NCBI GenBank assembly: GCA_963665845.2
Contig: OY762492.1
Coordinates: 3,040,001 to 3,104,000, forward strand
Reading direction: 5' to 3'
Origin: Candidatus Poribacteria bacterium
Lineage (GTDB): Bacteria; Poribacteria; WGA-4E; GCA-2687025
Length of the DNA stretch: 64,000 nucleotides
Shown here: in pieces, positions 29,428 to 56,814 of the stretch
How the letters are laid out: each line of letters opens with the position of its first letter
Numbering within the stretch: position 1 is the first letter of the stretch
Notes under the pieces: generated by a model
Databases searched by the model: none
Seen by the model: the letters and a program-made list of their open reading frames with translations, nothing else
What the model was told of the DNA's origin: nothing
Made by a program: the position numbers and the translations under genes

Positions 29428-30231
29428 TCACTGCGTCTTGACCGCCGCCCATGTGGAGGTCAATTTGCCGGCAGGATCGACCGATGTCGGCACGTCGGTG
29501 ACACTGTCGGCGAGCGTGTGCGCGTCGTCCAGACCGCCGGAGCCGACCGCCAAGTAGAACGCGATCGGGTCGCTTGTCTGCCCTGCGGTCAGGTCTTGGG
29601 ACAGGTTGTCATGGATAAGGTGCATCCGCCCGTCCGCCTGCCATGCGTCATTCACCGCCGCCGTTCCGTTCTCGGTGTACATGGCAAAGTACCCGTCGCT
29701 GTTTGCGAAGGCGACATGGTGGAATGGGTCTTCCCACAGCATATACTGATTTTCAGCGCCTTTTCCGTTGCGCGGTTCGCACATCGGCTCATGCCCGTTG
29801 GTGAGCGATGCCAAGGCGGCGCTCGCTTCAATGGCGAGCTCATGCTTGAAGTAGGGGACGCCGTCCCAGTAGGTGGCGGTGACATGGTACAGCTTGCTGC
29901 CGCCGTCGTTCATGACATATTTCATGACAAGGTAGCCGCCTCCTTCTTCGACGATGTTCACCTCAGCGGCGGCTCCCCAGTCGCGCCATCCGCCGTAGTT
30001 GGAGGAGTGGTAGAAATTGCGCCCCTGGTCGGCTCCGAGAAGGCTGCCCCCGTCCACAATCGCTTGCGAGTAGCCGGCTTGCGCCGCCACTTTGAAGTGA
30101 ACCGTGTACCCGTCCGTTTCAATGATCCAGACGCCGTTGTCTTCCGAAACTGACACCGCCGACGCATGGCTGACTCCGAGCGCCATGACAACGGAAATGA
30201 GAAGGCTCAACAGCGTTTTACGAATGTTCAT
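29428..30231 (-). CDS. Secreted protein, family A paralog 1, C-terminal VDPAGKLTSTWAAVK motif
   Basis: Signal peptide MNIRK...ASA; homologous to three other genes in the window. Confidence 0.85.
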   Translation of the reverse strand: MNIRKTLLSLLISVVMALGVSHASAVSVSEDNGVWIIETDGYTVHFKVAAQAGYSQAIVDGGSLLGADQGRNFYHSSNYGGWRDWGAAAEVNIVEEGGGYLVMKYVMNDGGSKLYHVTATYWDGVPYFKHELAIEASAALASLTNGHEPMCEPRNGKGAENQYMLWEDPFHHVAFANSDGYFAMYTENGTAAVNDAWQADGRMHLIHDNLSQDLTAGQTSDPIAFYLAVGSGGLDDAHTLADSVTDVPTSVDPAGKLTSTWAAVKTQ

Positions 30232-30285
30232 GCGATTCCTTTCAGTAGTTGCGCCGCGCCTCAACTGCGCGGCATTTGAGTGAGA

Positions 30286-31101
30286 TTACCGTTTCAATTG
30301 CGCCCAGCGGGTCGCAAGCTTGTCTTTTGGATCGACCGAGAGCGAGGCGGGTTCTTCGGTGACCTGATCAGCCAGTTCATGCGCATCGTCCAAGTCGCCA
30401 GGTCCGAGCGCAAGGTAGTACACAAGCGGATCGCTTGATTCGTCCTCCTTCAGATTGACGCCCTGTTCATTGTGAAGCAGATGCATGCGTCCGTCTCCCC
30501 CGCCCCCCCAAGCGGCATTGAACGCCGTTGCGCCGACTTCGGTGTACATGGCAAAATAAGAGCCGTCGGTCTCCATCGCCACATGGGGGAACGGGTCGTC
30601 CCACTCCATATATTGGTTGCCTGCGCCTTTGCCGTTGTGCGGCTCCACCATCGGTTCGTGACCGTGGCTGAGCGACAACACCGGATTTTTCGCCGTCACG
30701 ACCAGCTCATGTTTGAAATACGGCGCGCCGTCCCAGTAGGTGGCGGTGACTTCATAAACTTTGCTTTTGTTGTCGTCCACGGTGTATTTCATGATGAGCG
30801 TTTTGTTGGTGTTGGAAATCTCTTTCACATCCACCGCCATTCCCCAGTCTGTCCAGCCGGCGTAGTTGGCGGAATGGTAGAAATTGCGCCCTGCCGCTCC
30901 GAAGAGCGACTCCGCCCCCGCTTCAGTGGAGGGGAACGCTTGCGAGTAGCCCGCCTGCGCCGCTACTTTGAAATGCAGCACATAACTATCGGTTTGGATG
31001 GTCCAGACGCCGCCGTTTTCATCCACTTCCACGGCGCCGAGATCCGATGCGAACGCCACCAAAAAGCAAAGGGCGGCGGCAGCCGTCAACAGCCTTTTCA
31101 T
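30286..31101 (-). CDS. Secreted protein, family A paralog 2, C-terminal VDPKDKLATRWAQLK motif
   Basis: Signal peptide; shared FYH..Y.GW..WG, TYWDG.PY, HEPM, DGRMHL motifs. Confidence 0.85.
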   Translation of the reverse strand: MKRLLTAAAALCFLVAFASDLGAVEVDENGGVWTIQTDSYVLHFKVAAQAGYSQAFPSTEAGAESLFGAAGRNFYHSANYAGWTDWGMAVDVKEISNTNKTLIMKYTVDDNKSKVYEVTATYWDGAPYFKHELVVTAKNPVLSLSHGHEPMVEPHNGKGAGNQYMEWDDPFPHVAMETDGSYFAMYTEVGATAFNAAWGGGGDGRMHLLHNEQGVNLKEDESSDPLVYYLALGPGDLDDAHELADQVTEEPASLSVDPKDKLATRWAQLKR

Positions 31102-31224
31102 TTTTCAGCCTCCTTTCAATCAGCCAGCCGAGCCTCCCGCTGAAAAGGAAACTCGGCGTAAAATAGAATGAACGCCTTTTTTTACCATATCTTATCGGCG
31201 GCGTCAACATACAATGCAAAGCGT

Positions 31225-31380
31225 CGCGCGGCTAAAACCCCCCTAGCCCCCCTTTTCAAGGGGGGAATCGGACGCGGCGCCTTCAAGGGGGAATCGAGCG
31301 CCGCGCTTTCAAGGGGGAATCGAACGCCGCGCGGCTAAAACCCCCCTAACCCCCTTTTCAAGGGGGAATCGGATGCGGCG
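31225..31380. repeat. Cluster of CCCCCCTAGCCCCCCTTTTCAAGGGGGGAATCG repeats
   Basis: Four TTCAAGGGGGAATCG units in ~150 bp. Confidence 0.85.
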
Positions 31381-31386
31381 CCGTAC

Positions 31387-32205
31387 TCAAAACGAGCGTT
31401 TCAAATCCGCCCAGCGCATCGCCAGCTTCTCCGCCGGGTCAACCGACAGCGACGCCGGCTCCTGCGTAACCTGTTCAGCCAGATCATGCGCGTCGTCCAG
31501 ATCGCCCGTTCCCGCCGCCATGTAGTACACCAGCGGATCGCTCGAATCGCCCTCTTTTAGTTGGACGCCAAGATCGTTGTGGCTCAGATGCATGCGCCCG
31601 TCCGGCGCCCATCCGCCGGCAGCGATGGCGGTTCCCATCTCCGTATACAACGCGAAAAAGCCGTTCTCATTCGCAAACGCCGCATGCGCAATCGGAGCGT
31701 CCCAAGCCTGATATTCGTTGTCGGCGCCCATGCCGTTTCGAGGCTCGCTCATCGGCTCATGGTTGTCTGAAAACGAAACGACAGGCTTTTTCGCCTTCAC
31801 AACCACCTCATGTTTCCAGTACGGCGCGCCGTCCCAGTAGGTGGCGGTGACCTCATACACTTTGCTGTCGCCGTCGTCCAAGGTGTAGCGCATGATGAGC
31901 GTGTTGTTGGCGTTGGAAATCTCCTCCACATCCACCGCGGTTCCCCAGTCTATCCAACCGTTGTAATTGGCGGCGTGGTAGAATGTTCGCGGCTGCCCCG
32001 CGCCGAAGAGCGACTCCGCCCCCGCTTCAATGGAGGGGAACGCTTGAGAGTAGCCCGCCCGCGCCTCTACTTTGAAATGCAACGCGTAACGATCGGTTTG
32101 GATGGTCCAGACGCCGCCGTTTTCATCCACTTCCACGGCGCCGAGATCCGATGCGAACGCCGCCAAAAAGCAAAGGGCGGCGGCAATCGTCAACAGCCTT
32201 TTCAT
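31387..32205 (-). CDS. Secreted protein, family A paralog 3 (mosaic), C-terminal VDPAEKLAMRWADLK motif
   Basis: N-terminus near-identical to paralog 2, C-terminal half near-identical to paralog 4. Confidence 0.85.
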   Translation of the reverse strand: MKRLLTIAAALCFLAAFASDLGAVEVDENGGVWTIQTDRYALHFKVEARAGYSQAFPSIEAGAESLFGAGQPRTFYHAANYNGWIDWGTAVDVEEISNANNTLIMRYTLDDGDSKVYEVTATYWDGAPYWKHEVVVKAKKPVVSFSDNHEPMSEPRNGMGADNEYQAWDAPIAHAAFANENGFFALYTEMGTAIAAGGWAPDGRMHLSHNDLGVQLKEGDSSDPLVYYMAAGTGDLDDAHDLAEQVTQEPASLSVDPAEKLAMRWADLKRSF

Positions 32206-32321
32206 CTATCAGCCTCCTTTCAATCAGCCCGTCAAGCCTCCGGCTGAAAGGAAACTCGGCGCAAAGTAAAACGAACGCCTTTTTACCATATCTTATCGGA
32301 GGCGTCAACATCCAATGCAAA

Positions 32322-33346
32322 GGGGACTACTTACTTAACTAACCTCGCGTTTTGCGCTAGTATACATGCTAGTCATGGCACAAGGAGCAATCCGATGCAG
32401 TTTAGCAGCCTTTACGATTTATTCGAGCAGATTCCAAACGAGAAAGCAGCCGCGCGGTTCTTTGAGCAGCATCGCTGGCCAGACGGCAGATGCTGTCCCA
32501 AATGCGGCTCCAAAAACACGATGCGCGTCCAAAATGTGAAACCGATGCCGTTTCGATGCCGAACCTGCCGCAAGCATTTTAGCGTCCGGACCGAAACCTT
32601 GATGGCGAACAGCAGGCTTGCGCTCCGCAAGTGGATCTTAGCGATTTACCTGATGCATACCTCGCGCATGGGCATCTCCAGCGTTGAGATGGCAAAAAAG
32701 ATCGGAACGACGCAGAAGACGGCATGGTCCCTAGGCCACCGCATTCGAGCCGCAATGGTGAGCGACGACGAAATGCTGAGCGGCATCGTGGAGGCGGACG
32801 AGACCTACATCGGCGGCATCGAGACAAAAAAGCATCGCAGGAAAAAGCTGGGCATCGGAAGCGGAACCAGCGGGAAGCAGCCTGTGATGGGCATGCGTCA
32901 AAGAAACGGCGAGATCCGCGCATTTCTGCTGGACAATGAGCTCAAGAAAACGCTGCAGGATGCTGTAAGGGCGAACGTGGCGTCCGGTTCGTCCCTTTAT
33001 ACCGACGCTCTTTCGTCTTACCAGGGCATGCTGGAATACAGGCATGCCTATGTCTCGCATCAGAAAGGCGAGTATGTTCGCGGCGATGTTCACACCAACA
33101 GCATCGAGTCGTTCTGGGCCGTGCTGAAACGCGGGTATCGCGGCGTTTACCATTTCATGTCGTTTAAACATCTGGGTCGCTACGTCAGCGAATTTGTGTA
33201 TCGTTTCAATGTTGGCGTCGACAACAGCTTGGACACGATCGGCAAGCTGATTCCGCGCATGGTTGGCAAATGCCTTACTTACGCGGAGCTGAAAGGAGAA
33301 GGCGGCGTAAAACGACAGCAAAAGGCTATCTAGGGATATAGGCCCC
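32322..33346 (+). mobile_element. IS1595-family insertion sequence
   Basis: Imperfect TIRs GGGGACTACTTACTTAACT / GGGGCCTATATCCCTAGAT; no target-site duplication seen; ends approximate. Confidence 0.7.
32395..33333 (+). CDS. IS1595-family transposase
   Basis: RWPDG..CPKC..CRTC zinc ribbon, HTH, VEADETYIGG, YTD, HTNSIESFW, YVSEFVYRFN. Confidence 0.95.
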   Translation: MQFSSLYDLFEQIPNEKAAARFFEQHRWPDGRCCPKCGSKNTMRVQNVKPMPFRCRTCRKHFSVRTETLMANSRLALRKWILAIYLMHTSRMGISSVEMAKKIGTTQKTAWSLGHRIRAAMVSDDEMLSGIVEADETYIGGIETKKHRRKKLGIGSGTSGKQPVMGMRQRNGEIRAFLLDNELKKTLQDAVRANVASGSSLYTDALSSYQGMLEYRHAYVSHQKGEYVRGDVHTNSIESFWAVLKRGYRGVYHFMSFKHLGRYVSEFVYRFNVGVDNSLDTIGKLIPRMVGKCLTYAELKGEGGVKRQQKAI

Positions 33347-33484
33347 TTTTCAAGGGGGAATCGGACGAGGCGCCTTCAAGGGGGGAATCTGACCTCATGC
33401 TTAAAGTTGGGACATTTGAACCGACAATCGCTCTATTCATGGGAAAAAGGCGCCGCCAACCAGACCGTCATTTGTATGATGACA

Positions 33485-33676
33485 TTGCCCCTCGAGTTAG
33501 CGCATACTTAAGGGGTAGCGCGGTGAGACTCCAGACCGTCTTGGGCGCGTTGCTTCGCAGCGGCGCCGTGCGGGAGTATCGAGAGCCGCGCAAAGAAGAC
33601 AAGAAAGACCGGAGGCTCCGCACAGATACCGTGTTCTTGTTACAGAATACAAGTAAGGAGGCCGGTCCTTCTTGTC
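33485..33676 (+). ncRNA. Predicted IS110 bridge RNA (5' stem-loop, target-binding loop, donor-binding loop)
   Basis: Guides CCAGACCGTC (33531-33540), GCGGGAGTATC (33570-33580), CACAGATAC (33621-33629), ATACAAGTA (33647-33655) match flanks/ends; enclosing stems visible; exact transcript ends unknown. Confidence 0.85.
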
Positions 33677-33701
33677 CTTTTCTCCCGAAAGGAGAACGAA
33701 A

Positions 33702-34891
33702 ATGAACATACCACGCCACGACGAAAACAGCAACAAATCGCCGCCGGAATCGACGTGTCCAAAGACACGCTTGAAATCTCCATCAACGGCGGGGAAACCT
33801 CCACCATTAAAAACGCCGCGAGCCCCATCAAGCGGTTCATCAAACGCCTCCTGACGACCCACTCCAACATCAACATGGTCGTCTTTGAACCGACCGGCGG
33901 ATACGAGCGGAAACTGGCGTCGCTGCTCGCCGAAGCAGAGATCCCTTACCGCCGCTGCCATCCAAACTTTGCCCATAACTTCATCCGCTCCTACAGCGTC
34001 CGCGCCAAGACCGACGCGCTGGACGCCAAGATGCTCGCGCTGTATGGGCTGAGCCGCGATCTGGAACCAACGAAACCGATCGATCCGGTCGTGAAAAAGG
34101 CTCGCCGCTGGATGACGATACGCATGCAGCTGGTGAAAACGATCACTCAGTGGACCAATCGGAAGCATCTGCTGGACGGCGAGGCGACCAAGGATGCGAC
34201 CGAAGAGATCATCCAGTCCCTGAAAGAGAGGCGCGACGCGGCGGAGCGGGAAGCTCTGGCATTGGTCAAGAAAGAGGCAGAGCTTCGCGAGAAGTTCAGC
34301 CTGTTGAAGAGCATTCCGGGCTTCGGGGCTCTCATTTCCGCGTATCTGGTTCTTTATGTGCCGGAGTTGGGCAATCGGAGCGGCCGTCAGATCTGTTCCC
34401 TGCTTGGTTTGGCTCCTTGGGCGCGCGAGAGCGGGAAGTTGACAGGTCGCCGCCGCATTTGGGGCGGTCGGAGCGATGTTCGCGCGCTTCTGTATATGTC
34501 GGCGATGTCGGCGATACAGTATAACCCGGACATGAAGGCGTTTTACGAGCGTCTGACGGATCGCGGCAAGCCTGGGAAGGTCGCGCTTACGGCGGTGATG
34601 CGGAAGTTGGCGGTTCTTGCGAACGCGATTCTGAAGCGTGGAACGCCTTGGGTTCCCTTGGATGAGTTGCATTCTTTGATTTCATCGGAAGAGTCGGCGT
34701 CTTCCGATGAGCAGGATGAAACAGCGGCTGCGGCGCCATCGGAAGAGTCGGGGTCTTCCGATGCGTCGGTCGCGGCGCCGACCGGAACATCTGCGTCTTT
34801 GGATGAAGCTGACGGGGAGGCGCTGCCGGCGCCTGGAGAAGCGCCGGCGGCGTCTTCCGATCCGCAGTCAAGCGACAGGACGCAAGGCTGA
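33702..34891 (+). CDS. IS110-family DEDD recombinase/transposase with an apparent frameshift near the 5' end
   Basis: GIDVSK, FEPTG, KTDALDA, ESGK; RBS+ATG at 33702 is out of frame with the main ORF by one base near 33735. Confidence 0.88.
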
Positions 34892-35217
34892 TGAAAACAT
34901 CTTTCCGAAATTTCGCTGCGGCGGCTCCTTCGGTTCTGCCGAAAAAGATCCGCCGCGGCGACTTTCTGGACTACGGAGAACGAGATATGGTTGACTTTGA
35001 ACACAGATACTCCCGCGCAAGCGGGAATCCAGAGTCCACCTCGAAACCGTCCGCGTTTCCATGCCGACATGTCCCTACTTTAGGCGTGAGGTAAGAGACT
35101 CCCCCTTGAAAAGGCGTTTACGGGCGCGGCGTCCGATTCCCCCTTGAAAAGGGGGCTAGGGGGGTTTTCTGCGCCGCCTTAAGATTCCCGCGCGTTTTAC
35201 CGCAAGGGCGGGGATGT

Positions 35218-36546
35218 TCATGTCCAAGACGCAAAAACGGCGTTGTATTCAGGGTCGGTGCGATGGTTCCAAGGGACGGTCAGATCTTGCCAAAGACAGC
35301 TGTACGCGGCGGGATTGACCGAGCGCATTGCATCGGCGTATTCCACCGTAAAACGCCGGCAAGCGGAGCATTCGTTCAGCGCGGCAGTTTCATCGGCAAA
35401 CGCGCGCAGGCGCACGGCTGTCGACGGATACGCCGCCTCAACCGCTTCAACCGCCCGGCGCGGCGCGCCGAGATGCATCGCCAGCGCGAGCGGATCCAAC
35501 GTATAGGCGAGCAGCGTCTTGCTGACGGAACGCCCGCGAACGTCCCCCAGCGGATACTCGGTGAACCAGCAGCATGGGTAGGCGTATCCGCCGTTGACGG
35601 CGATCTGGTCGTCCCCGTCGGAACCGAGAAAGCCGCGCGCCCCCGCATGCCGGCTGCAGTATCGAACGCCGTTGTCCCGCTCTGAAATCAGCCCGGCGCG
35701 CACAGCGCGGATGTTCGGCGCCAGGTCTTCAATGATGAACCCGTCAAAACGGTTCTGAATGTCGGCTCCGAAAAAGTGAACGGAGAGAACGCGCGGATCG
35801 TCCGGCAGCTCCTGAAAATTGCCGCTTTTGACAACGACCGTTTGAATTTGTTTCAGGTTCTCTTGGATGCGCGCATAATGTCGAAGCCGCTCCTCAAACT
35901 GCTCCTGCGTCGACGAACCGCGCCCATGGTAGATGTCCATGCTGGCGATGACGAGACGGCGCAGACCGCAGCGTTGAAGCGCCCGTATCGTCTCGACGCA
36001 TCGGCGCGGCGACAGGAGAAAATCGCCGTTCGTTTGGAGCGACAGCATCAGATTGGGGCCGTAACGCTCGAAGCAGAGGCGCAGCGTGTGGAGTGTCAAC
36101 GGAAGCGTCTCTGGCATGAGCGTCTCCCCGCCGCTGATTTCGATCTCCCGCAGCGGAAATGGCAGGAAAGCGACCGTCTCTTCGATCTCCCGCTCTGTCA
36201 TGGAGACGCCGTTCGGGCCGGAGCCGTTCAGGCAGTGGGCGCATGTTCGGAATTGGACGCCGCCGTTGTCGTCTGCATAGGCGCGTCCGTTGTTGCAGCG
36301 GGTTGTGATGACGAAATAGACCGAGTCTTTACGGGCAAGGTCGGGCGGCAGGACAGCGTTTTCCAGCGCGTTCCAGAAGGACGGCTCCGCCGCGGCGCGC
36401 GTCAAGCGGGCAAATCCATCGGCGCCGAGACCCGCCTCTTCAGCCGCCTCTTCGATGCGCAGATTCAGCGGGCGATCGTCGTTCCGATTTAAAAACGAAG
36501 GCGACCGAACCGCCCTAGCCCAAGCGTATAAATTCTCAAGCGCCAT
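35218..36546 (-). CDS. Radical SAM protein with non-canonical CX17CX2C motif and C-terminal Cys cluster
   Basis: ITTRC-17aa-CAHC, SGGE, QTNG, SMDIYH, YC...YPCC...LGDV...CSAC; GAGGAG RBS. Confidence 0.8.
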   Translation of the reverse strand: MALENLYAWARAVRSPSFLNRNDDRPLNLRIEEAAEEAGLGADGFARLTRAAAEPSFWNALENAVLPPDLARKDSVYFVITTRCNNGRAYADDNGGVQFRTCAHCLNGSGPNGVSMTEREIEETVAFLPFPLREIEISGGETLMPETLPLTLHTLRLCFERYGPNLMLSLQTNGDFLLSPRRCVETIRALQRCGLRRLVIASMDIYHGRGSSTQEQFEERLRHYARIQENLKQIQTVVVKSGNFQELPDDPRVLSVHFFGADIQNRFDGFIIEDLAPNIRAVRAGLISERDNGVRYCSRHAGARGFLGSDGDDQIAVNGGYAYPCCWFTEYPLGDVRGRSVSKTLLAYTLDPLALAMHLGAPRRAVEAVEAAYPSTAVRLRAFADETAALNECSACRRFTVEYADAMRSVNPAAYSCLWQDLTVPWNHRTDPEYNAVFASWT

Positions 36547-36582
36547 CCGCTCTCCTCTTTACCCCGATAAGTTTAGGTTAAC

Positions 36583-36749: not shown

Positions 36750-36867
36750 CCATCCGCCTCCCCTTTACGCTCATAGTGTAGGTTAAAAAGGAGCGCGGCG
36801 CAAACTTGACGCAGCCGACCCTTTCATGTAGCATGCCGACGCTAAGCAGATCGAATGGAGGAAGCGT

Positions 36868-37680
36868 ATGAAACGGTTGTTATGCGCCGCCGCCGTATTG
36901 ACCGCGGTCGGCGCGGTTGAGGCGTTTGCCGTGAACGTAACCGAAAACAACGGCGTCTGGATCATTGAAACCGATACGTATGTACTGCATTTCAGAGAGG
37001 AGAACCGCGCCGGTTATTCAGAAATCTACCCGTCCAGGCTGTTGGACGCGACATCGCTTGTGGGTCCCGATCAGCCGCGCTCGTTTTACCATTCGGCGCA
37101 GTACGACGGATGGGTTCAGTGGGGCAACGCGGTGAGCGTTGACGAGGTCTTAAACGAAAAGAAAACGCTCATCATGGAGTATCAGGTGGACGACGGGAAC
37201 AGCAAGCGGTATCTCGTCACGGCAACCTACTGGGACGGCGCGCCGTACTGGAAACATGAGGTGGTTGTGAAGGCGAAAAAGCCTGTCGTTTCGTTTTCAG
37301 ACAACCATGAGCCGATGAGCGAGCCGCGCAACGGCATGGGCGCCGACAACGAATACCAGGCTTGGGACGCTCCGATTGCGCATGCGGCGTTTGCGAATGA
37401 GAACGGCTTTTTCGCGTTGTATACGGAGATGGGAACCGCCATCGCTGCCGGCGGATGGGCGCCGGACGGGCGCATGCATCTGAGCCACAACGATCTTGGC
37501 GTCCAACTAAAAGAGGGCGATTCGAGCGATCCGCTGGTGTACTACATGGCGGCGGGAACGGGCGATCTGGACGACGCGCATGATCTGGCTGAACAGGTTA
37601 CGCAGGAGCCGGCGTCGCTGTCGGTCAACCCGGCGGAGAAGCTGGCGGCGCATTGGGCGGAGTTAAAACGCTCGTTTTGA
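36868..37680 (+). CDS. Secreted protein, family A paralog 4, C-terminal VNPAEKLAAHWAELK motif
   Basis: GGAGG RBS, signal peptide, family motifs; TTGACG-N17-TAGCAT at 36806-36834. Confidence 0.85.
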   Translation: MKRLLCAAAVLTAVGAVEAFAVNVTENNGVWIIETDTYVLHFREENRAGYSEIYPSRLLDATSLVGPDQPRSFYHSAQYDGWVQWGNAVSVDEVLNEKKTLIMEYQVDDGNSKRYLVTATYWDGAPYWKHEVVVKAKKPVVSFSDNHEPMSEPRNGMGADNEYQAWDAPIAHAAFANENGFFALYTEMGTAIAAGGWAPDGRMHLSHNDLGVQLKEGDSSDPLVYYMAAGTGDLDDAHDLAEQVTQEPASLSVNPAEKLAAHWAELKRSF

Positions 37681-38032: not shown

Positions 38033-41000
38033 ATGGACGCAAAGACGCTGGTCGCGGCGGCGGGAATCGGATTGCTCGCGTTTCTGTTTTATCCGAGAAC
38101 GGACGAGACGACAACGACGGGGACTGCCGAATGGGTCGAGACCGCGAAGCAGATCGACGGGGAACCCATCAAGCTTGCCAGCTGGGGGAGAGACGATCCG
38201 CCGTCCGCAACACTCGACCTCCGCTTCATCTATCGGCTGGATAGGGCGCAGATCGAGTTTGAAAACGCCGCTGAAGACGGACCGAGAGCGTATGAGATCG
38301 TTGTCAGCAAGGAGAGAAGCGAGGGGTTTCAGCGCGTCTTTACCTTCAAAAGCTCCTCCCGAAACTATCCATACGCCGCGCTCGAATTTCAAAACCGACA
38401 AGAAGGGCGATGGGTTCAGGCGGCGGTCAATGACTGGTTCAGCGTCAAGCCCGCTGTCAAGGCGTTTCGGGTTGGCGCTGTCTATACGCGCGGCTGGAGT
38501 CCGATAGCGCGCGTCGATACTTCCCACAACAGAGCTGACGCCAACCGGCTCATGGACGGCGTCTTGGCGGAGGAGTCGATCTGGGCGGGCGCGGAGGCGT
38601 CGTCAGAAGAAAAAGAAGGCGAAACGGCAACGCCGTTTCAAACGCCCGCTGAACAGGTGTGGGCGGTTGTGGAGCTGAAGGAGGCGGCGGTTGTGTATGG
38701 AATGCGCGTCGCAACAGGGGGAGCTGGCAACGGCGTTCGCGCTTATCGGGCGTATGCGAGTTTGGACGGGGAGCGGTATCGTCTCATGGGTTCGGCGTCT
38801 GATCTGGCGGATGAGCCGATATTGAGCCGTCTGATGTTTCAAGAACCTGTGAAGGCGCGGTATCTGCGCGTCGAGATCAAACAAGACGAATGGCATGGGT
38901 CTTATCCTGCGCTGCGGGAGATCGAAGCGTTCACCGATTCTTACCGCCCCGCGCCGTCCGTTCAACCGCATGGAGAACAGGATGGCGCAGACGGCGTCAG
39001 CTTCATACAGATACGGCGGGACAACTGCGGACGGAGCCTGGAGCGTTCGCCGCATCTGACGCAGGGCTTTCCGTATGACCGAGGCGAAGGCGTCGGCGCG
39101 TCTGACGTTTCACCGCAAAATCGATACGGATGGATCGAAAAGGAAGAAATCGAGGGCGAGGCGGAGGAGAACCTGCGGACGTTCGCTTACCATTACGACG
39201 CAGTCCGTTTTCATTATGACGGGCTTTCAAAGGAGCGCCGCTACACCTTATATGTGTCGTATCTGCAGAATGTTGGCGGGGGCCGCCGTCAAAATCTGAT
39301 TGTGGACGGGTATCTGCTGCATGGGGATTTGCCGGTTCCGACGGCTGCTCAGCCTCCGCGCGTGTTTGCGGTTCCGCCGCAGGCCGTGGAAGACGGGGAG
39401 CTGGTTGTGTCGGTCAATCGGCTGGCGGGACCGAACGCGGTTGTTTCTGAAATCTCGCTTTATGAGTCGGCGCGGTCGGCGGACGAAGCGGTCGCCGATG
39501 AACGCCGAACCGCCAAGATACTCCAAGCGCATGCGCCGATGATCATCGACGGCAAGCTGGACGACTGGAGCCGACTGCATCCGCTGGGCGTCGGGGAGGG
39601 GGAACCGTCTGTCTGGGCGGAATGGGACGAAGCGGCGCTGTATGTGGCGCTGTCGATACCGACGGGGCTTCTCTCGGAGGCGCCGTCGCTGCAGGACGCC
39701 TTTGACCTGTTCATCGACGCGCGGGTGGACGACGCGGAGCATGCGCCGTCGCTTGCCGCCTATCAGAAAGGCGACATTCATATACGGCTGCTGCGCGTCG
39801 GCGCGAAGTTTCCAGCGGCGCGGTATGTGCGTCATGAGACGGGGCAGGGGGCGTCGGCGCCGTTGGGGTTGCCGGCGGTTCAAACGGCGGCGCGCGTGGA
39901 AGGCGGGATTTACACGCTGGAGATCCAGCTGCCGAAAGAGGGCGCGCTTCCCGACTGGGAGCCGAAAATCGACCGCCTGATTGGTTTGAACTACATCCTA
40001 TCGCTTCCGAACACGGAGACGGGGCTTTGGCATCTGTCGGCGCGGCGTCCGCATGATCCGCCGATGCGCTGGCGGCGCTGTCGGCTGATCGGATCGATTC
40101 AGGGGCGTCTGCAGTTCGGCTCCGCGCCGGTCGATTTTGAAACGGCGGACGGCGGCGTCTTTCCATACTTCGCCGGCGGAAGCCTCTGGGCGATGGCGTA
40201 CGATCCGGACGCGAACCGCGACCCGTCCGTTCAGGAGTCGATCTCCGCCGTCGTTATCGGCGCCTTTGACGAGCGGATGCGCCTTGAGCTGCGGGAGGGA
40301 GCGCTGGTTGTTGGAGAGGGGGGCGAAGTAGAGCTGGAGCCGTCCGCCGACAGCGAGCGGTTTTTTGCGCCTGTTCAGACCGAATACGCCGAGGCCCCGT
40401 TGAACGCCCCGGACCGCATCTCGGCGCGGGGGGGAGAGCTGTTGACCGTCTCATACGAGGACTCGTTCGCGCGGCCGGACGGGTCGGCGGAAACCGCCTC
40501 GGCGCAGGCGTCCGCCGTAACAGGCGCGGACGGAGAGATTCAACTGGAACCTGCCGGACGGTTCACCGCCGGCGACATGCTGCGCATCACAGCCGTTGAC
40601 GGCGACGAACATGGGCTGCTTGAAATCGTAGAAGAAACGGCGGCTGAAGATGCCAACGAAACGGCAGAAGACGGTTCCAATGAGGCGGCGGAGGTTCCGA
40701 CTCCGGCTAACGAAGAGGCGGCGGAGGTTCCGACTCCGGCTAATGAGGAGGCGGCGGAGGTTCCGACTCCGGTTAAAAAAAAGGGGCGCGAGGCGGTTGT
40801 GTCGGCGCTGGATCTGGGCGAGGCGCGGGATGTTGAAACGATCCTTTTAAAAGAGAATGAGAGCGGCGCGTATGAAGGCGCGTTGCCGACCGTATACAGC
40901 ATGGAGCCTATCAGGGGGGACGGCGTCTTGCAGATTGCGGGAAATCAGATTGCGCTGGCGGCGTATGTCGACAAGGCGCGGGCAAGCGGAGAAACGGAGG

Positions 41001-43973: not shown

Positions 43974-46070
43974 GTGGGGCATGAGATGGCGCATCTGGAG
44001 AAGATTTCAGCGATTCTCAGGGATAGCAATTACCGCCTAGATTTGTTCACCGACGATGAAGTCCGAAATCTGGACGATAAAATCAAAATGCTAAAAAGCA
44101 GGAGCGTTCCGCTTATTGAATGCACCTTTCGGAAAAAGTCGGTTCAAGCAAAGCCGGAGGAGCTGGTTCGCCAACTCTACGCGGACCGCCTCTGGGATTA
44201 CTACGGCTATCAGGATCGCATCAGGTTTGAGCATCTTGTGAACTTCGGACGCGAACGAAAGCGCGCCGATATCGTCATCCTCGACAAGGAAAGGGAGGAG
44301 TATCCTTATATCATCGTTGAGGTGAAGAAGCCGAAGCTGCAAGATGGTAAGGCGCAGCTGCGTTCTTACACAAACGCAACAGGCGCGCCTATCGCTGTCT
44401 GGACCAACGGAGAGAAAATTTCTCACTACTATCGCAGGGACCCGAACTACTTTGAGGAAATCACCGACATTCCGAAGGCGGACCAGACGCTCGCGGACAT
44501 TATCAAGGAACGGTTTACGCTTAAAAATCTCATTCTCAAAGACAAGCTGTTCACGGAGCGCAAATCCTTAAAGGATGTCATTTTAGACCTGGAGGATGAG
44601 GTGCTGGCGAACGCCGGGGTTGACGTCTTTGAGGAGGTGTTCAAGCTGATCTTCACGAAGCTCTACGACGAGTTCAAAAGTCGCGACGACAAAGAATTTA
44701 TCAACCGCATCTTGCGTCAAAAAGCGAACGTCGAAATCCGAGAATCTAGCGCGCCATACGGTTCTGGCGTACCCGATCATGAAACCATCAGAAATGCGGT
44801 TGCGGATATTTCAGATGATGATTTTCGTCGTATGGAATTTCGCAACACCGGGCAAACCGATGCCGAGCTCAATGCAAAAATACACAGGCTATTCAAAGAA
44901 GCAAAAAGCCAATGGAGCGGCGTCTTCCCGGACTATTCAGAGTTTGAGCTTTCGGACAGCCACCTCGCCGTTTGCGTGTCCAGCTTGCAGGATGTAAGAT
45001 TGTTCAACTCCAACCTGCAGATTGTTGATGAAGCGTTTGAGTACCTTGTCAGCAAATCGGCGAAAGGCAAAAAGGGGCAGTACTTCACCCCGCGCCACGT
45101 GATCGATATGTGCGTCAAAATGCTGAACCCGAAACGCGGCGAATACATGATTGACACGGCGGCGGGAAGCTGCGGCTTTCCGGTGCATACCATTTTCAAG
45201 CTAACTGGTACGCTTTTCACGAACGCGGAAATTCCAAAAGAGGATAAGGAAAACGTCCTCAAGGTGTTCGGCATCGATTTCGATGAAAAAGCTGTAAGGG
45301 TCGCGCGGACGCTTAACCTGATTGCAGGCGATGGCGAAACAAATGTCCTGCATCTCAACACGCTCGACTATAAGCGGTGGAACGAGCGGACAGAACGGTG
45401 GATAAAGACATACGGCAAAGGATATGATCGGCTCAGAGACAGAGCGTCGCCCCGCGGACAGAACAAAACGTTCGACTTCGATATTCTGATGGCGAATCCT
45501 CCATTTGCCGGCGACATCAAGGAGAGTCGCATCCTCCATCAATACAGCATCAGCTTCAGAGAAAACGGCAAAGCGTATTCGAAAGTCGGGCGCGACATTC
45601 TGTTCATTGAGCGAAATCTGGATTTCTTGAAACCCGGCGGACGCATGGCGATCGTGTTGCCGCAAGGAAGATTCAACAACACAACCGATCAACGCATCCG
45701 AGAGTTTGTCGCGGAGCGCGCCCGCATCTTGGCGGTTGTCAGTCTGCATGTCAACACATTCAAGCCGCATACGGGGACGAAAACTAGCGTTCTGTTTCTG
45801 CAGAAGTGGGACGCAGAATCAACTGAGGAGCCGGTCTGCCCCAAAGTAAGCGACTACCCGATCTTTTTTGCGGTCAGCGAAAAAAGCGGCAAAGACAACT
45901 CCGGCAAGTATGTGTATCTTGAAAGCAGCGGCGGGAAATACAAAATGGATCGAAATGGCCACCTGATTGTGGAGCACGATCTGCACAATCACGATGGCGA
46001 ACTGCCCGACGGCGTCGCCGAAGCGTTTATCGAATGGGCGAAAAAAGAAAAACTGAGTTTCTGGTCATGA
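43974..46070 (+). CDS. Fused restriction nuclease (HsdR_N-like PD-(D/E)XK) / N6-adenine methyltransferase
   Basis: PEELVRQ, RADIV...IVEVK, WTNG; GQYFTPR, DTAAGSCGF, ANPPF. Confidence 0.92.
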   Translation: MGHEMAHLEKISAILRDSNYRLDLFTDDEVRNLDDKIKMLKSRSVPLIECTFRKKSVQAKPEELVRQLYADRLWDYYGYQDRIRFEHLVNFGRERKRADIVILDKEREEYPYIIVEVKKPKLQDGKAQLRSYTNATGAPIAVWTNGEKISHYYRRDPNYFEEITDIPKADQTLADIIKERFTLKNLILKDKLFTERKSLKDVILDLEDEVLANAGVDVFEEVFKLIFTKLYDEFKSRDDKEFINRILRQKANVEIRESSAPYGSGVPDHETIRNAVADISDDDFRRMEFRNTGQTDAELNAKIHRLFKEAKSQWSGVFPDYSEFELSDSHLAVCVSSLQDVRLFNSNLQIVDEAFEYLVSKSAKGKKGQYFTPRHVIDMCVKMLNPKRGEYMIDTAAGSCGFPVHTIFKLTGTLFTNAEIPKEDKENVLKVFGIDFDEKAVRVARTLNLIAGDGETNVLHLNTLDYKRWNERTERWIKTYGKGYDRLRDRASPRGQNKTFDFDILMANPPFAGDIKESRILHQYSISFRENGKAYSKVGRDILFIERNLDFLKPGGRMAIVLPQGRFNNTTDQRIREFVAERARILAVVSLHVNTFKPHTGTKTSVLFLQKWDAESTEEPVCPKVSDYPIFFAVSEKSGKDNSGKYVYLESSGGKYKMDRNGHLIVEHDLHNHDGELPDGVAEAFIEWAKKEKLSFWS

Positions 46071-46894
46071 CATACATCGGAAATGAACTCCAGTGGAAGC
46101 AGCTTGTCGAGGTTGACTGGTTGGGACAGTACGTTAAAGCATGGGTCGCCTTCAACGCTTGGTATAGCAATAATTTCAGGCATCCGGACGCGGGAAAACG
46201 CTTTAGAGATCGCGAAATCATCGAAAAAATCAAAAACGATGAAGGCAATGTCCGTTCAAAAGTAGAGCGTTTGCTATCAGGGGAAGGATCCGACCAAAAG
46301 TCTTTCCAGACAAACTTGGCGGACCTTCACAAATCCTTGGGAGATGTTACTGTGAAGTTGAGTGGGATACGTGTTTCATTCGAAGAAGTTGAAGATTATA
46401 AATCCGCAAAATCTATCGATAGAAAGCATTTCGGGATACAATACAATATAGAAGTTAATCCCGACAAAAGAAATCGGTTAATAACGGTTAAAAACAGAGC
46501 GAATACGAATATTTTCGATGAAGTTATTACGTCAAGCGATGAGGAAAAGTTTAAAGGCGTTAAATGGTTTGAGGATTTGAGGGAAAGTGGGTTTTTTGTA
46601 AAACTAAACCCCCATCAAATGAAATATCTTAGGACTTATATTACAGAATCGACACCCATCCACAATTTATTATACAAACATGTCGGTGATTTCACCGATC
46701 CCGACGTGTCTTACATAGATATTGGACAGTATAAATTTATTAACGATAAAGTTTTAATTGCGCGATCGCTCATTGAAATTTTATACAAATTAAGAAATTC
46801 GCTCTTCCATGGTGAAGTTGTGCCGAATGATGTCCAAAATGTGTACCAAAACGCTTATTTGATCTTGAAATATATAATACCTGATGGAGTATGA
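46067..46894 (+). CDS. Putative HEPN-domain protein
   Basis: WVAFNAWY near N-terminus and LYKLRNSLFHG (RxxxxH) near C-terminus; ATGA overlap with methyltransferase stop; AT-rich. Confidence 0.75.
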   Translation: MTYIGNELQWKQLVEVDWLGQYVKAWVAFNAWYSNNFRHPDAGKRFRDREIIEKIKNDEGNVRSKVERLLSGEGSDQKSFQTNLADLHKSLGDVTVKLSGIRVSFEEVEDYKSAKSIDRKHFGIQYNIEVNPDKRNRLITVKNRANTNIFDEVITSSDEEKFKGVKWFEDLRESGFFVKLNPHQMKYLRTYITESTPIHNLLYKHVGDFTDPDVSYIDIGQYKFINDKVLIARSLIEILYKLRNSLFHGEVVPNDVQNVYQNAYLILKYIIPDGV

Positions 46895-46897
46895 TCT

Positions 46898-48310
46898 TTG
46901 CGACATTCAGCCGTTAATTCCTCAGAAGTTGCGCGCGTCGGCGGATTTAGAATCGACGCAGATTATTGGGATCCTGTCTATATTGAAAACAGCAAACTGG
47001 TTTCATCTGGGTACAGGTTGAAAGATTTTGTATCTCCGCATATCGCCAACATCAAAACTTCCCCTGTCAACCGAGACTTCGAGTATCTGGAAATCTCCCG
47101 AATCTCGATGACCAACGTTGAATATCGAACAGCTACGGTGGCGCAAGGTGCAGCGCCGGACCGCGCCCGTCACATCTTACAGAAAGGGGATGTGGTCGTG
47201 TCTACCGTCAGGCCTAACCGAAACGCTGTCGCCCTGATTGAAGAGGATGGCGTGGTCGGTAGCAGCGGCTTGTCGGTTCTAAGACCGAGTGCCACTGTCT
47301 TAAGAGGCAAGATAGAAAGCGAGTACTTGTTTGCGTTTTGCAAGACCCGCTACTTTGTAAACTGCCTAATGCGGGCAAACAAGGCGAGCATGTACCCGGC
47401 TGTTTCAAACGCTGATGTGCTGAATACGCCATTTTATAGTGCTTCCGAATCTTTCAGAAATCAAGTCGCGCGGATAGTCCGACGCTCTATTTCCTGTCTA
47501 TCTGAAGCTAAGACGCAGCGCGCTGAAGCCGAAGCGATACTCCTCTCTGAAGTCGGCTTAGCCGACTGGCGTCCGGAGCAGGAGCTCGCTTTCGTCAAAA
47601 ACTACTCTGACGCGTGGCACGTTGAACGCATAGACGCCGACTACTTCCAGCCGAAATACGACGAAATCGTTGACGCGATCAAGGCGTATCCGGATGGCTG
47701 GGATACGCTGGGGAATCTATGTTCAACAAAAAGAGGTTCTTTAATCAAAGATTCATTCTATGATAAAAAAGAAGGAACACCTTATATTCGAGGAGGTAAC
47801 TTCTCTGGCGGCGTATTATCATACAAAAACATGGTTTATATCAATTCTGAATTTAAGCATTCAAAGGAGACACAAGTATATGAAAATGACATTGTTTTTT
47901 CCTTAATTGGCAGCGTCGGGGAATCTGCGCTTGTTACAAAAGAATTCCATGGCGCATATATATCAAACAATACTGGCAAAATAGAATGTAAATCGCTCAT
48001 TTTTGCTACTTTTCTCCAAATTTTACTTGCGTCAATTGTCGGGAAATCGTATTTTGAGAAGTATAAAACCCAAACTGCCCAGCCAAAAATATCGGACAAA
48101 GATTTGCATAATTTTGTTATTCCTATTCTGTCTACAGACAAGCAACGCCAAATTGAGCGAAAGGTCGCCGAGGTCTCTGAATCTCTCAACCTGCGCCAGC
48201 GTTCCAAAGAGCTTTTGGAATGCGCCAAGCGCGCTGTAGAGATCGCCATTGAGCAGGATGAGCAAACCGCCATCGACTGGCTGCGTCAAAAGACGGAGGG
48301 CGGCGCCTAA
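46898..48310 (+). CDS. hsdS: Restriction-modification specificity (S) subunit, two TRDs
   Basis: RIDADY repeated twice, STVRP, coiled-coil spacer, C-terminal SKELLECAKRAVEIAIE. Confidence 0.88.
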   Translation: MRHSAVNSSEVARVGGFRIDADYWDPVYIENSKLVSSGYRLKDFVSPHIANIKTSPVNRDFEYLEISRISMTNVEYRTATVAQGAAPDRARHILQKGDVVVSTVRPNRNAVALIEEDGVVGSSGLSVLRPSATVLRGKIESEYLFAFCKTRYFVNCLMRANKASMYPAVSNADVLNTPFYSASESFRNQVARIVRRSISCLSEAKTQRAEAEAILLSEVGLADWRPEQELAFVKNYSDAWHVERIDADYFQPKYDEIVDAIKAYPDGWDTLGNLCSTKRGSLIKDSFYDKKEGTPYIRGGNFSGGVLSYKNMVYINSEFKHSKETQVYENDIVFSLIGSVGESALVTKEFHGAYISNNTGKIECKSLIFATFLQILLASIVGKSYFEKYKTQTAQPKISDKDLHNFVIPILSTDKQRQIERKVAEVSESLNLRQRSKELLECAKRAVEIAIEQDEQTAIDWLRQKTEGGA

Positions 48311-50005: not shown

Positions 50006-50031
50006 TTTGACACTTTATACGCCGCGCCGCT

Positions 50032-53324: not shown

Positions 53325-53329
53325 CGCAT

Positions 53330-54427
53330 CTACCTCAACCGCGGATAAGAGCCGAGTATCTTGATCGACAGGCAGACGGAGCGCAGCTGCTGAATCGTTT
53401 CGTTCAGCGGCGACTCGGTCGAATGTCCGAGGCATTCGATGAAAAAGCCGTATTCCCACGATTCAATGCGCGACGGGCGCGACTGAATCAAGGTCAAACT
53501 GACATCGTGTTTGGCAAACTGCTCCAGGACGCGCATGAGCGCGCCCGCCTCATGCCGCGCCGTGAATAGAATGGAGGTCTTGTCGTCGCCGGACGGCGCG
53601 GCTCTGTCGTTGCCGATCGACAAAAAGCGGGTCGTATTGTCGCGCAGGTCTTCGATGCGCGCCTCCAGTATCTGCAGGTCGTACACCTGCGCCGCCAGTT
53701 CGCTGGCGATGGCCGCCGTCTTCGGCTCTTCCGCCGCTTTGCGCGCGCCCTCGGAGGTGCTGCTGACCGCGACCAGCTCCGCGTCCGGCAGGCGCGTCTG
53801 AAGCCAGGTGCGGCACTGCGCCAGCGCCTGCTGATGCGAATAGACCCGCTTCACCTCGCCCAGAGAGGAGCCGCTCATGATGTTATGCGAGATCGAAATC
53901 TCCGTCTCGCCGCAGATCTGAACGCTGGAGTCCACAAACTGATCAAGCGTGTCGACCACCACCCCATGCGTTGAGTTCTCAATCGGCACGACGCCTTGGT
54001 GGCAGACGCCGCGTTCGACGGCGCGGAAGATGTCCGCTTGGTCGCTTTGGGGAAGGTAACGCGCGCCTTCTCCAAAAAATCGGCGCGCCGCCATGTGCGT
54101 GAAGCTCGCTTCCGGACCCAGATACGCGATGGCGGAGGGCGCCTCTAAGGCGCGCGTCGCCGAGATGATCTCGCGGTAGATCGCCTTGACCGCATGGTTC
54201 GGATAGACGCCGTTGACATTCAGCGCTTCCACCCGCTCCAGCACATTCCGTTCGCGGTGCGGCGCGTAAATGGCGATGGATTCATCGTGCTTGGCGGCGC
54301 CAATCGCCTTGGCGGCGCGCCCCCGCTCATGAAGCAGCTCCATGATCTGCTGATCAATGTGATCAATGCGGCCGCGCAGCTCCTGAACGCGCGTTTCGTC
54401 CGCGTCGACCGGCTTTGAACGGCTCAT
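53330..54427 (-). CDS. pheA: Chorismate mutase / prephenate dehydratase (P-protein)
   Basis: N-terminal AroQ helices, YLGP, PIENS, TTRF, ACT domain QSRP, LGSYP. Confidence 0.95.
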   Translation of the reverse strand: MSRSKPVDADETRVQELRGRIDHIDQQIMELLHERGRAAKAIGAAKHDESIAIYAPHRERNVLERVEALNVNGVYPNHAVKAIYREIISATRALEAPSAIAYLGPEASFTHMAARRFFGEGARYLPQSDQADIFRAVERGVCHQGVVPIENSTHGVVVDTLDQFVDSSVQICGETEISISHNIMSGSSLGEVKRVYSHQQALAQCRTWLQTRLPDAELVAVSSTSEGARKAAEEPKTAAIASELAAQVYDLQILEARIEDLRDNTTRFLSIGNDRAAPSGDDKTSILFTARHEAGALMRVLEQFAKHDVSLTLIQSRPSRIESWEYGFFIECLGHSTESPLNETIQQLRSVCLSIKILGSYPRLR

Positions 54428-54428
54428 C

Positions 54429-54686
54429 TTATGAACGCTTGCCGCCTGTCAGCTCGCGTATCCGTTCGATCATCTGTTCGTCGGACGGGTTTTCTTTCAC
54501 CAGCTTGGTGAAATCTTCCGCCGAGATGCCCGTTTTTTGAAGCCATGCCTTGTCCGCCGGGCAGGGATAGATGTAGTCCCCCAGGCTGCCGTTCAGATGC
54601 GCCCGCGCCTTGTCAGTGATGCGCGGAAGCCAGCGGATGCCGCCGATAACGTTGTCTCTGCCGCGCGGTTTCCAGTCCAGCGCCAT
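54429..54686 (-). CDS. DUF5069-like small protein
   Basis: PR...GG..WLPR..DKARA...G.LGDY.YPCP.D. Confidence 0.75.
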   Translation of the reverse strand: MALDWKPRGRDNVIGGIRWLPRITDKARAHLNGSLGDYIYPCPADKAWLQKTGISAEDFTKLVKENPSDEQMIERIRELTGGKRS

Positions 54687-54753
54687 ATGTGTGCCTTTCC
54701 GTTCGTGACGTTTGGTTTATGTTGCCAAAGACGCGCGCCCGCGTCAAGAGCCG

Positions 54754-55377
54754 TCAGCGCGCTTTCAAGTCGCCCCAGACAGCCGCCGCTTTCCCTTCAG
54801 GGTCCACGGACGCCAGCGTCGGATCGAAATACGCCTGAATCTCGACCCAGTGCGACCATTGATTCGCGGTGCTGCCGCCGATCCAGGCATGCAGATACCG
54901 CGCCTCTACCGTGTCAAACAGGATCTTATGTCCAGCCGCCGACTCCGCGTAGGTATCGTCGTCCGCGTCGGTGTTGAAGACCGCTGTCAAATCGTCGATA
55001 CTGTCCAGGTTGTCCTTGTCGCCGTCCGCGACGTCGCCTTCGCCGAGCGCGGCGGACAACGCGATGATGTTGCCGTTGTAGGCGCGCCCGTCGCCCCAGT
55101 AGTGCCAGATGTGAATGCCGTTGATTTTGACGACTTCTTCAAAGTCGATGCCGACGCGGGTCGGACCGCCCAGATACGGGTCGGTTGCCGTGTTTCCGTC
55201 TGTCAGAAGTCCGACGTGTCCTTGACCTGGATTCCCGTTGGCCCACGCCGGTTTATCAAGCGCCAGGTTTTCGAGTCCTTCAAAGGAGATGTCGTCCTGC
55301 TCCTGCGCGTTCACGAAAGCGGCGCCCATTATGAGTAAAGCGGCCGCCGTTACAATTGTCATGATCTGAATTCTCAA
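54754..55377 (-). CDS. Secreted discoidin/galactose-binding-like protein, family B paralog 1, C-terminal VDPEGKAAAVWGDLK
   Basis: Signal peptide; ENLAL.KP, LTDG, IWHYWGDGR, ARY, WVEIQ. Confidence 0.82.
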   Translation of the reverse strand: MRIQIMTIVTAAALLIMGAAFVNAQEQDDISFEGLENLALDKPAWANGNPGQGHVGLLTDGNTATDPYLGGPTRVGIDFEEVVKINGIHIWHYWGDGRAYNGNIIALSAALGEGDVADGDKDNLDSIDDLTAVFNTDADDDTYAESAAGHKILFDTVEARYLHAWIGGSTANQWSHWVEIQAYFDPTLASVDPEGKAAAVWGDLKAR

Positions 55378-55483
55378 TGAATTCTCCCTTCAAAATGCGC
55401 TCCCGCTCATGAATCGCCGGGAGCTTTCTTGTTCTGATGGCGCCTTTCTATCTTATTCCCCGCCTGTTTGACGCAGGATCATG

Positions 55484-56110
55484 TCAGCGCGTTTTCAAAT
55501 TTCCCCAGACGGCAGCCGCTTTTCCTTTAGGGTCCACCGAGAGCAGATCAGGGTTGAAATACGCCTGAATCTCCACCCAGTGCGACCACTGGTTGGCGTT
55601 GCTTCCGCCGACCCAGGCATGCAGGTACTGGGCGTCAACCGTCTCAAAGATGATCTTATACCCCGCCTCCGACTCCGGGTAGGTTTCGTCGTCGGCGTCT
55701 GTGTTGAAGATCGTCACCATACCGGGGATATTGTCCAGTTTGTCCTTGTCGCCGTCATTTACATTGTCGAAGTCAAGCGTTTCGGACAGCGCGATGATGT
55801 TGCCGTTGTAGATGCGCCCGTCGCCCCAGTAGTGCCAGATGTGGATGCCGTTGACCTTGACGACCTCCTCAAAGTCGACGCCGACGCGGGTCGGACCGCC
55901 CAGATACGGGTCGGTCTCGGTTTTTCCGTCTGTCAAAAGCCCTGCGTGTCCTTGACCGGCTCCTCCGTTGATAAAGGTCGGCTTTTCAAGCGCTAGGTTT
56001 TCAAGTCCCTCAAAGGAGATCTCGTCCTGCCCCTGCGCGTTGGCGTCCAAAGCGGCTCCCAGTATCAGCGCGGCGACGGCCGCTGCAGTTGTCATGATCC
56101 GAAGTCGCAT
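55484..56110 (-). CDS. Secreted discoidin-like protein, family B paralog 2, C-terminal VDPKGKAAAVWGNLK
   Basis: GAGGAG RBS, signal peptide, strong similarity to neighbours. Confidence 0.82.
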   Translation of the reverse strand: MRLRIMTTAAAVAALILGAALDANAQGQDEISFEGLENLALEKPTFINGGAGQGHAGLLTDGKTETDPYLGGPTRVGVDFEEVVKVNGIHIWHYWGDGRIYNGNIIALSETLDFDNVNDGDKDKLDNIPGMVTIFNTDADDETYPESEAGYKIIFETVDAQYLHAWVGGSNANQWSHWVEIQAYFNPDLLSVDPKGKAAAVWGNLKTR

Positions 56111-56175
56111 GTATTCTCCTCTCAAAATGCGCTCGCTCTGTCGGACGCTAGAATAACAGAAACGCGCCCGCCATG

Positions 56176-56814
56176 TTACCGGGTTTTCAAATCGCCCCAG
56201 ACGGCGGCCGCTTTCCCTTCGGGGTTGACCGACAGCAGCGCGGGGTTGTAAAACGCTTGAATCTCCACCCAGTGCGACCACTGGTTCACATTGTTTCCGG
56301 CAAGCCAGGCATGCAGATACTGCGCCTCTATCGGCTCGAACACGATCTTCTTTCCCGCTTCGGTTTCAGGGTAGGTTTCGTCCCCGGCGTTCGTGTTGAA
56401 CACCGTCGTAATGCCTTCGATTTCATCCAGCCTGTCCTTGTCCTCGTCCGCTAGATCGTCGAAATGCAGCGCCTCGGACAGGGCGATAATGTTGCCTTCG
56501 TAGATCGGATTCGTCAGCCAGAAGTGCCAGATATGAACGCCGTTGATGAGGACAACTTCCTCAAAATCGATGCCGACGCGGGTCGGTCCGCCGAGATACG
56601 GATCGGACTCCGTATTTCCGTCGGTCAAAAGCTCTGGATGTCCCTGACCGATCCCCCCGTTTGTCCATACAGGCTTTTCAAACGCTAGATTTTCAAGCCC
56701 CTCAAAAGAGATGTTGTCGTCCTGCCATTCTTGACCGTTCGCGTTTGCGAGACAACAAAGCGCGGCAGCCGCCATGAAAACGCGCAGCGCCGCTTTTGCC
56801 GTATGAGACCGCAT
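56176..56814 (-). CDS. Secreted discoidin-like protein, family B paralog 3, C-terminal VNPEGKAAAVWGDLK
   Basis: AAGGAG RBS, signal peptide, strong similarity to neighbours. Confidence 0.82.
   Translation of the reverse strand: MRSHTAKAALRVFMAAAALCCLANANGQEWQDDNISFEGLENLAFEKPVWTNGGIGQGHPELLTDGNTESDPYLGGPTRVGIDFEEVVLINGVHIWHFWLTNPIYEGNIIALSEALHFDDLADEDKDRLDEIEGITTVFNTNAGDETYPETEAGKKIVFEPIEAQYLHAWLAGNNVNQWSHWVEIQAFYNPALLSVNPEGKAAAVWGDLKTR

Follow-up and report, generated by a model that had tools for sequence, protein, structure and literature searches.

A short C-terminal tag on small, predicted secreted proteins of Candidatus Poribacteria and its possible link to type IX sorting signals

Seven window genes with a common ending

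We analysed 64,000 nucleotides of a Candidatus Poribacteria bacterium (assembly GCA_963665845.2, contig OY762492.1, positions 3,040,001 to 3,104,000), referred to here as the window. It encodes seven small proteins of two families, A and B, with a common C-terminal ending (the tag). An earlier note on this DNA had reported the seven proteins, their division into two families without core similarity and their shared ending. All of this was verified: the positions and motif endings of the seven open reading frames (ORFs) are correct, and 1-3 residues follow the motif. The genes are listed below, with lengths in amino acids (aa).

29428..30231, minus strand: family A protein 1, 267 aa, signal-peptide-like start; tag at 29431-29487
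30286..31101, minus strand: family A protein 2, 271 aa, predicted beta-supersandwich; tag at 30289-30342
31387..32205, minus strand: family A protein 3, 272 aa; tag at 31390-31449
36868..37680, plus strand: family A protein 4, 270 aa, inverted copy; tag at 37618-37677
54754..55377, minus strand: family B protein 1, 207 aa, TTG start, F5/8 type C (discoidin)-like core; tag at 54757-54813
55484..56110, minus strand: family B protein 2, 208 aa, F5/8 type C-like core; tag at 55487-55543
56176..56814, minus strand: family B protein 3, 212 aa, F5/8 type C-like core; tag at 56179-56235

The cores are 52-82% identical among family A members and 67-76% among family B members. The best match between A and B cores has E=0.023 over 37 aa, so the families are unrelated. 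Family A is predicted to fold as a beta-supersandwich, resembling the N-terminal domain of GH36, the periplasmic domain of YidC and the mutarotase fold (predicted local distance difference test, pLDDT, of 87); for protein 1 this core is assigned through homology to protein 2. The tail of protein 2 is modelled, with low confidence, as a helix at residues 235-247 (pLDDT 50-56). A scan of the seven proteins against NCBIfam matched no family, and the Pfam scan gave just two weak unrelated matches. Family A proteins 4 and 3 share 85% DNA identity over 738 nt. Between these two copies (32395-36546) lie IS1595-family and IS110-family transposases and a radical SAM-like gene. Another genome of the same genus, G001, has three family A genes in tandem. 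Longer fused forms of family B were looked for and none was found, which is weak evidence.

The tag across the genome and the phylum

The tag is 17 residues long, with the consensus [LT]-S-V-[DENSQ]-P-x-G-K-x4-W-[GA]-x-[LIV]-K. A two-round profile found it in 117 of the 34,884 stop-to-stop ORFs of the genome at 15 bits or more. All 117 matches lie within 30 aa of the ORF end and none is internal; about 24% of all ORF positions fall within that distance. Reversed ORFs gave no match at 12 bits or more. A profile made without the seven window proteins scores them at 26-36 bits, and one made from the seven alone recovers 86 further ORFs at 15 bits or more, all 86 of them within 30 aa of the end. 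Because these controls hold, the motif is not due to chance. The tagged cores fall into 21 BLAST clusters at 72 separate loci. The shared ending of families A and B is thus real, although it is not restricted to them.

A test for strict C-terminal placement had also been proposed. Such placement holds for the region but not for the extreme end: 1-3 residues follow the last Lys in 67 of the 117 tags and six or fewer in 76, whereas 41 carry an extension of 7-26 residues. This is the same number as the members of one 41-member cluster, of which the four tested are PD40 propellers. Trp is present in every free tag (117/117), partly as a product of profile construction. A few degenerate tails occur.

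Signal-peptide-like starts, called with a hydrophobicity heuristic and not with SignalP, precede 109 of the 117 tagged proteins, compared with 972 of 2,615 other genes (37%). The Fisher p value is about 1e-35, with paralogues that are not independent. Several of the eight remaining proteins are fragments. The expected co-occurrence with signal peptides was therefore found, and so was the absence of a transmembrane helix (over the final 40 aa, the Kyte-Doolittle mean of 15-residue segments peaks at 1.25). The amphipathic helix once suggested for the tag did not hold up. Its hydrophobic moment, 0.25, does not exceed that of shuffled sequences (0.30 +/- 0.15), and the helix, though predicted, has a pLDDT of 50-56. 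When 65 tags were scanned alone, no NCBIfam family matched, and four Pfam families matched weakly with one or two members each. The outcomes that could have overturned the earlier proposal did not appear: the motif is neither internal nor confined to two families, and no Pfam or NCBIfam model covers it.

Most of the cargo is made up of lectin-like or propeller modules in which no catalytic domain was recognised. Pfam matches were obtained for 26 of the 38 tagged proteins scanned (out of 117). They include LamG, 3-keto-disaccharide hydrolase-like, CBM9, CBM4/9, NPCBM, PD40 propeller and PKD domains, together with a reprolysin-like protease and a redoxin. Among the neighbours of the 72 loci, we found no recurring dedicated enzyme or transporter family. 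The tag behaves as a portable sorting-type tag, being terminal, carried by signal-peptide proteins of many folds and phylum-wide. This part of the sorting, attachment or docking role put forward earlier is supported.

The tag alignment matches all 121 Poribacteria genomes searched, with at most 66 candidates scored per genome. At 33 loci in five other genomes, all 54 profile matches are terminal. Homologues retain the tag in 21 of 21 cases for family A and 33 of 33 for family B, down to about 46-47% identity. Those with source names (3 of 21 rows) are Candidatus Poribacteria, in agreement with the earlier note, which mentions similar tails on Poribacteria proteins. A search across 1.84 billion entries returned 71 matches at E<=0.001: 67 with the terminal motif, one with a near-motif and three repeat-rich chance matches. 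Ten of the 71 were looked up, and these included one from Poribacteria and one from Acinetobacter (a chance match). The single viral match, an IMG/VR contig (L086:2986-5961), carries a tagged LamG-like gene and a gene with a type IX C-terminal domain beside phage-like genes. It is probably host DNA at a prophage edge and not phage use of the tag.

A shorter cousin form reads roughly [PAS]-[VT]-E-x-T-[TS]-W-G-x-I-K-x-[LM]-[YF]-R. At least 122 loci match it, 114 of them ending a plausible open frame; the scan pattern required the stop, so that terminal position is no independent test here. Among the 80 cousin matches listed, 25 are from Eisenbacteria, 4 from Krumholzibacteria, 3 from Zixibacteria, 2 from Latescibacteria and 6 from other named taxa (at least three of these by chance). 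The genome studied also has a CBM9-like protein with the short ending (L385:2262-2945), in a family whose other members carry the long form.

The tag is therefore real, phylum-wide and uncatalogued. Titles and abstract openings in the literature searched contained no description of it, with subscription journals sparsely covered and supplements outside the scope.

Other genes of the window were noted as well. Two tandem WD40 double-propeller proteins of 720-734 aa (18773-23124) have near-identical N-termini and no match to the tag or to a type IX domain. A protein of 1,945 aa (38033-43870) has N-terminal F5/8 type C domains, no further Pfam match, no tag and no match to TIGR04183. Next to it are restriction-modification-like genes (43974-48310), namely a fused HsdR_N/N6 methylase and a specificity subunit. 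Finally, two tandem, similar membrane proteins lie at 61247-64092; the first, which is the one scanned, has an Rce1-like (CPBP) domain.

Relation to type IX secretion

Type IX secretion system (T9SS) substrates are defined by a folded C-terminal domain (CTD), and in relatives the tag is found directly ahead of CTDs of type A. A pattern joining the tag to the CTD opening motif matches 64 of the 121 phylum genomes, some matches lying out of frame; the reversed control gave none. We translated 35 CTD-opening sites from 32 loci. In 24 of them, the segment stands in frame before a full-length CTD. In a separate set of 31 CTD sites from relatives, the full tag lies directly upstream in three. The CTD of an in-cis form scores above the TIGR04183 cut-off, and its model, a confident sandwich, matches FlgD-Ig and the P. 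gingivalis PorU structure 6za2. The segment before it is flexible (pLDDT 38-55), as it is in the model of the free tag. The earlier note set the tag apart from a type IX CTD as far shorter. This is correct as to length but incomplete, since many relatives have the same segment just ahead of a type A CTD. Trp, invariant in free tags, is mostly replaced in the 24 in-cis forms (18 Leu, 5 Trp and 1 Phe). This would be expected if the Trp is read only when no CTD follows.

The opening of the tag resembles a PorU cleavage site. In the part of PMC4560394 considered, the P. gingivalis site is X/(GSA)(VLI), and the part of PMC11969387 considered gives the P. intermedia site as PT/GI, inside a flexible linker. 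The dipeptide [GSA][VLI] occupies the positions 11 and 10 residues before Trp in 107 of the 117 tags, against a background of 3.75%. Tags from the loci of genomes G020 and G031 open with SV or AV in 37 of 44 cases. In the genome studied, one N-terminal domain occurs with either ending: the N-terminal ~180 aa of a 409-aa tagged protein are 77-82% identical to two CTD proteins of 1,500-1,600 aa. The two endings divide by size. Tagged proteins have at most 486 aa, and 48 of 52 CTD proteins exceed 500 aa.

The same genome encodes putative T9SS parts. It has 51 TIGR04183 matches over the cut-off, and a SprA-like gene of 2,198 aa (181.8 bits against a cut-off of 200). Of 41 phylum genomes, all have a SprA homologue and 40 have two or more C25 matches. 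Two C25 PorU-like proteins keep the His and Cys intact, and one of the genes is followed by a PorV-family gene. These proteins have ~2,000 aa (L014:10090-16278 and L016:12862-19771), compared with the 1,095 positions of the PorU model; a third C25 gene, of about 1,750 aa, occurs in family f8. Contig C3 duplicates the PorU1 region of C1 with frameshifts (L018:1-15776) and is likely an assembly artefact. A C25 tree with 19 of 26 rows (seven left out for length or stops) gave orthology of PorU1 for two genomes and of PorU2 for three. Five genomes that carry the cousin form all possess SprA and PorV-family genes, and the three of them tested for C25 have it as well.

PorV-family matches number 12, five of them over the cut-off, and several stand alone. 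One standalone barrel is at C1:3740912-3741820, and another PorV-family barrel is fused to a C-terminal SPOR domain (L384:673-2850). A divergent standalone gene at L017:9398-11256 is followed by a DUF5683 gene, and its orthologues in five genomes precede a gene of similar size. We regard it as a candidate tag reader. The PorV-family trees (42 rows in a quick IQ-TREE run; 66 of 68 rows in FastTree) define orthologue groups, but single out no shuttle as specific to the tag. In 58 of 61 genomes there is one copy of group I, the source genus being too divergent for the threshold. The sister of this group comprises one barrel per cousin genome, though only with a support of 0.64.

Since the tag ends 117 proteins and directly precedes type IX domains in relatives, it is likely a stripped-down type IX signal. 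We lean, with slightly better than even confidence, to a sorting signal without a CTD, in which the cleavage linker of the type A signal now works without its folded domain. Such a tag would likely direct small proteins of sugar-binding type to the surface of the cell. The position of the tag, its cargo, its in-cis form and the gene content are observed; from these we infer that T9SS parts recognise, export and cleave it. The proteins would first pass through Sec by their heuristically predicted signal peptide. A T9SS part would then recognise the second half, G-K-x4-W-[GA]-x-[LIV]-K, which is predicted to form a short helix borne by a flexible linker; the reader would most simply be one of the standalone PorV-family barrels. 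Co-occurrence suggests passage through the SprA-like translocon. One of the two PorU-like enzymes could then cut before the S/A-V dipeptide and transfer the protein to a surface glycan by transpeptidation, as the consensus match and the intact His-Cys pair suggest.

A wider version is tentative, and we hold it to be rather less probable than its opposite. Besides the folded type IX signals, Poribacteria might use another class that consists of a peptide alone, a helix-and-cleavage tag of 14-17 residues, with its own PorV-family shuttle and the second, conserved PorU paralogue. A shorter form would serve Eisenbacteria, Krumholzibacteria, Latescibacteria and Zixibacteria. The T9SS concerned would have no recognisable PorL/M/N motor or PorZ.

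Several observations weigh against a type IX signal without a CTD. The genome studied has no full in-cis form, and a remnant W-[SA]-[DE]-x-[KR], read by eye, appears in 17 of its 47 CTD proteins. The dipeptide of 11 of the 24 in-cis forms does not fit the consensus [GSA][VLI] (13 do). Pro-Val replaces it in 14 of 22 distant family B homologues, and Pro is the commonest residue at this place in the cousin form (45/114). The tag has no counterpart of the beta-strands in which motifs B, D and E lie. The PorU- and SprA-like proteins fall below the NCBIfam cut-offs, and the co-occurrence of tag and T9SS genes is among kin. GldM and GldN gave no match over the cut-off in 21 cases and GldL none in five, with the controls silent too. 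Full-length PorZ was not found in three Poribacteria genomes, while a control genome from the Ignavibacteriaceae gave a score of 326 bits. The neighbours of the 72 tagged loci include no recurring T9SS gene family.

Some of these points would suit a docking peptide that stays uncleaved and holds on non-covalently to a scaffold or an outer-membrane receptor (for example, a large CTD cargo or the surface layer). The tag would thereby array small binding modules, or would let them ride on CTD-bearing carriers. The Pro-Val variants, the tolerated extension of 7-26 aa, the Trp and Lys that stay invariant in the short helix predicted, and the lectin-like or propeller cargo, mostly with no recognised catalytic domain, are consistent with it. 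Yet no scaffold was identified, the segment is not packed confidently on the CTD in cis, and a conserved small residue followed by Val at the linker position resembles the PorU site. We give docking a clear minority share of the probability. A reader independent of the T9SS is more doubtful still. It would be a dedicated C-terminal protease or transpeptidase (e.g. CPBP/Rce1-like) or another exporter, with the tag before CTDs reflecting a shared processing step. The negative searches for PorZ and motor genes, the sharp size divide between tagged and CTD proteins and the two Rce1-like genes of the window (one scanned) argue for it. However, a distance of 4.4 kb separates these genes from family B, and genes of this kind do not recur near the 72 loci; the tag also has no transmembrane helix, which membrane-protease signals such as MYXO-CTERM need.

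Repeated CTD loss could instead have left a linker without function, and the match of the tag to the pre-CTD linker and the few degenerate tails fit this idea. It is largely refuted by the conservation of the tag in all the family A and B homologues, on 21 unrelated clusters and in every genome searched, with a Trp more conserved in free tags than in cis. We consider it very improbable.

If a type IX signal without a CTD is correct, a peptide-only signal would change the minimal recognition model of the T9SS and provide a very short tag for surface display. About 3.7% of the called genes (117 of 3,167), mostly lectin-like modules, would be reassigned to the cell surface in a phylum dominant in sponges. 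If the peptide-only class exists, the cell would be coated with at least 100 small binding modules, by the shortest outer-membrane export and anchoring signal of the T9SS. The prediction is directly testable in sponge metaproteomes. According to the part of PMC3909097 considered, single-cell genomes of Poribacteria contained TIGR04183 domains, whereas structural Por genes were not found in them; the presence of SprA-, PorU- and PorV-like genes across the phylum bears on that open point.

Comparison with known signals

PDZ/Tsp-type signals and the BAM beta-signal are read at the free C-terminus and fixed at the last residues. The tag has no such fixed position, with 1 to 26 variable residues past the conserved Lys. 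LPXTG, PEP-CTERM, GlyGly-CTERM and MYXO-CTERM are tripartite signals, with a transmembrane helix and then basic residues. Like the tag, they are short and C-terminal and occur on dozens to hundreds of unrelated exported proteins per genome. Unlike them, the tag has no transmembrane helix or basic cluster, and the 65 tags scanned have no NCBIfam match and only weak Pfam matches.

The type B CTD (TIGR04131) is a precedent for several signal classes served by different barrel shuttles, as described in the part of PMC12618676 considered. That part also describes, among the PorP/SprF shuttles, an orphan shuttle serving orphan cargo. According to it, a type B signal is a long domain with a fold, and its gene usually neighbours that of its shuttle, whereas the tagged genes have no recurring shuttle neighbour.

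The type A CTD (TIGR04183, PF18962, FlgD_ig PF13860) is closer. It too is C-terminal and carried by Sec-exported cargo of many folds. The tag precedes this domain in relatives, mostly opens with the (GSA)(VLI) cleavage consensus and occurs in genomes with SprA-, PorV- and PorU-like genes. It differs in length (about 17 aa against 70-90), in being a predicted short helix without Ig-like sandwich, GxY or terminal beta-strand motifs, and in its confinement, in the genome studied, to proteins under about 500 aa. It matches neither TIGR04183 nor PF18962 (no NCBIfam family; scattered weak Pfam matches).

The nearest precedent for a shrunken T9SS signal is the short CTD of Prevotella intermedia, which is still cleaved and glycosylated. 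As presented in the part of PMC11969387 considered, these domains have 40-55 aa and three beta-strands and keep motifs B, D and E; their predicted binding to PorV is like that of long CTDs. Their cleavage motif, a small plus an aliphatic residue in a flexible linker, resembles the opening of most tags. The tag differs in retaining the linker part only.

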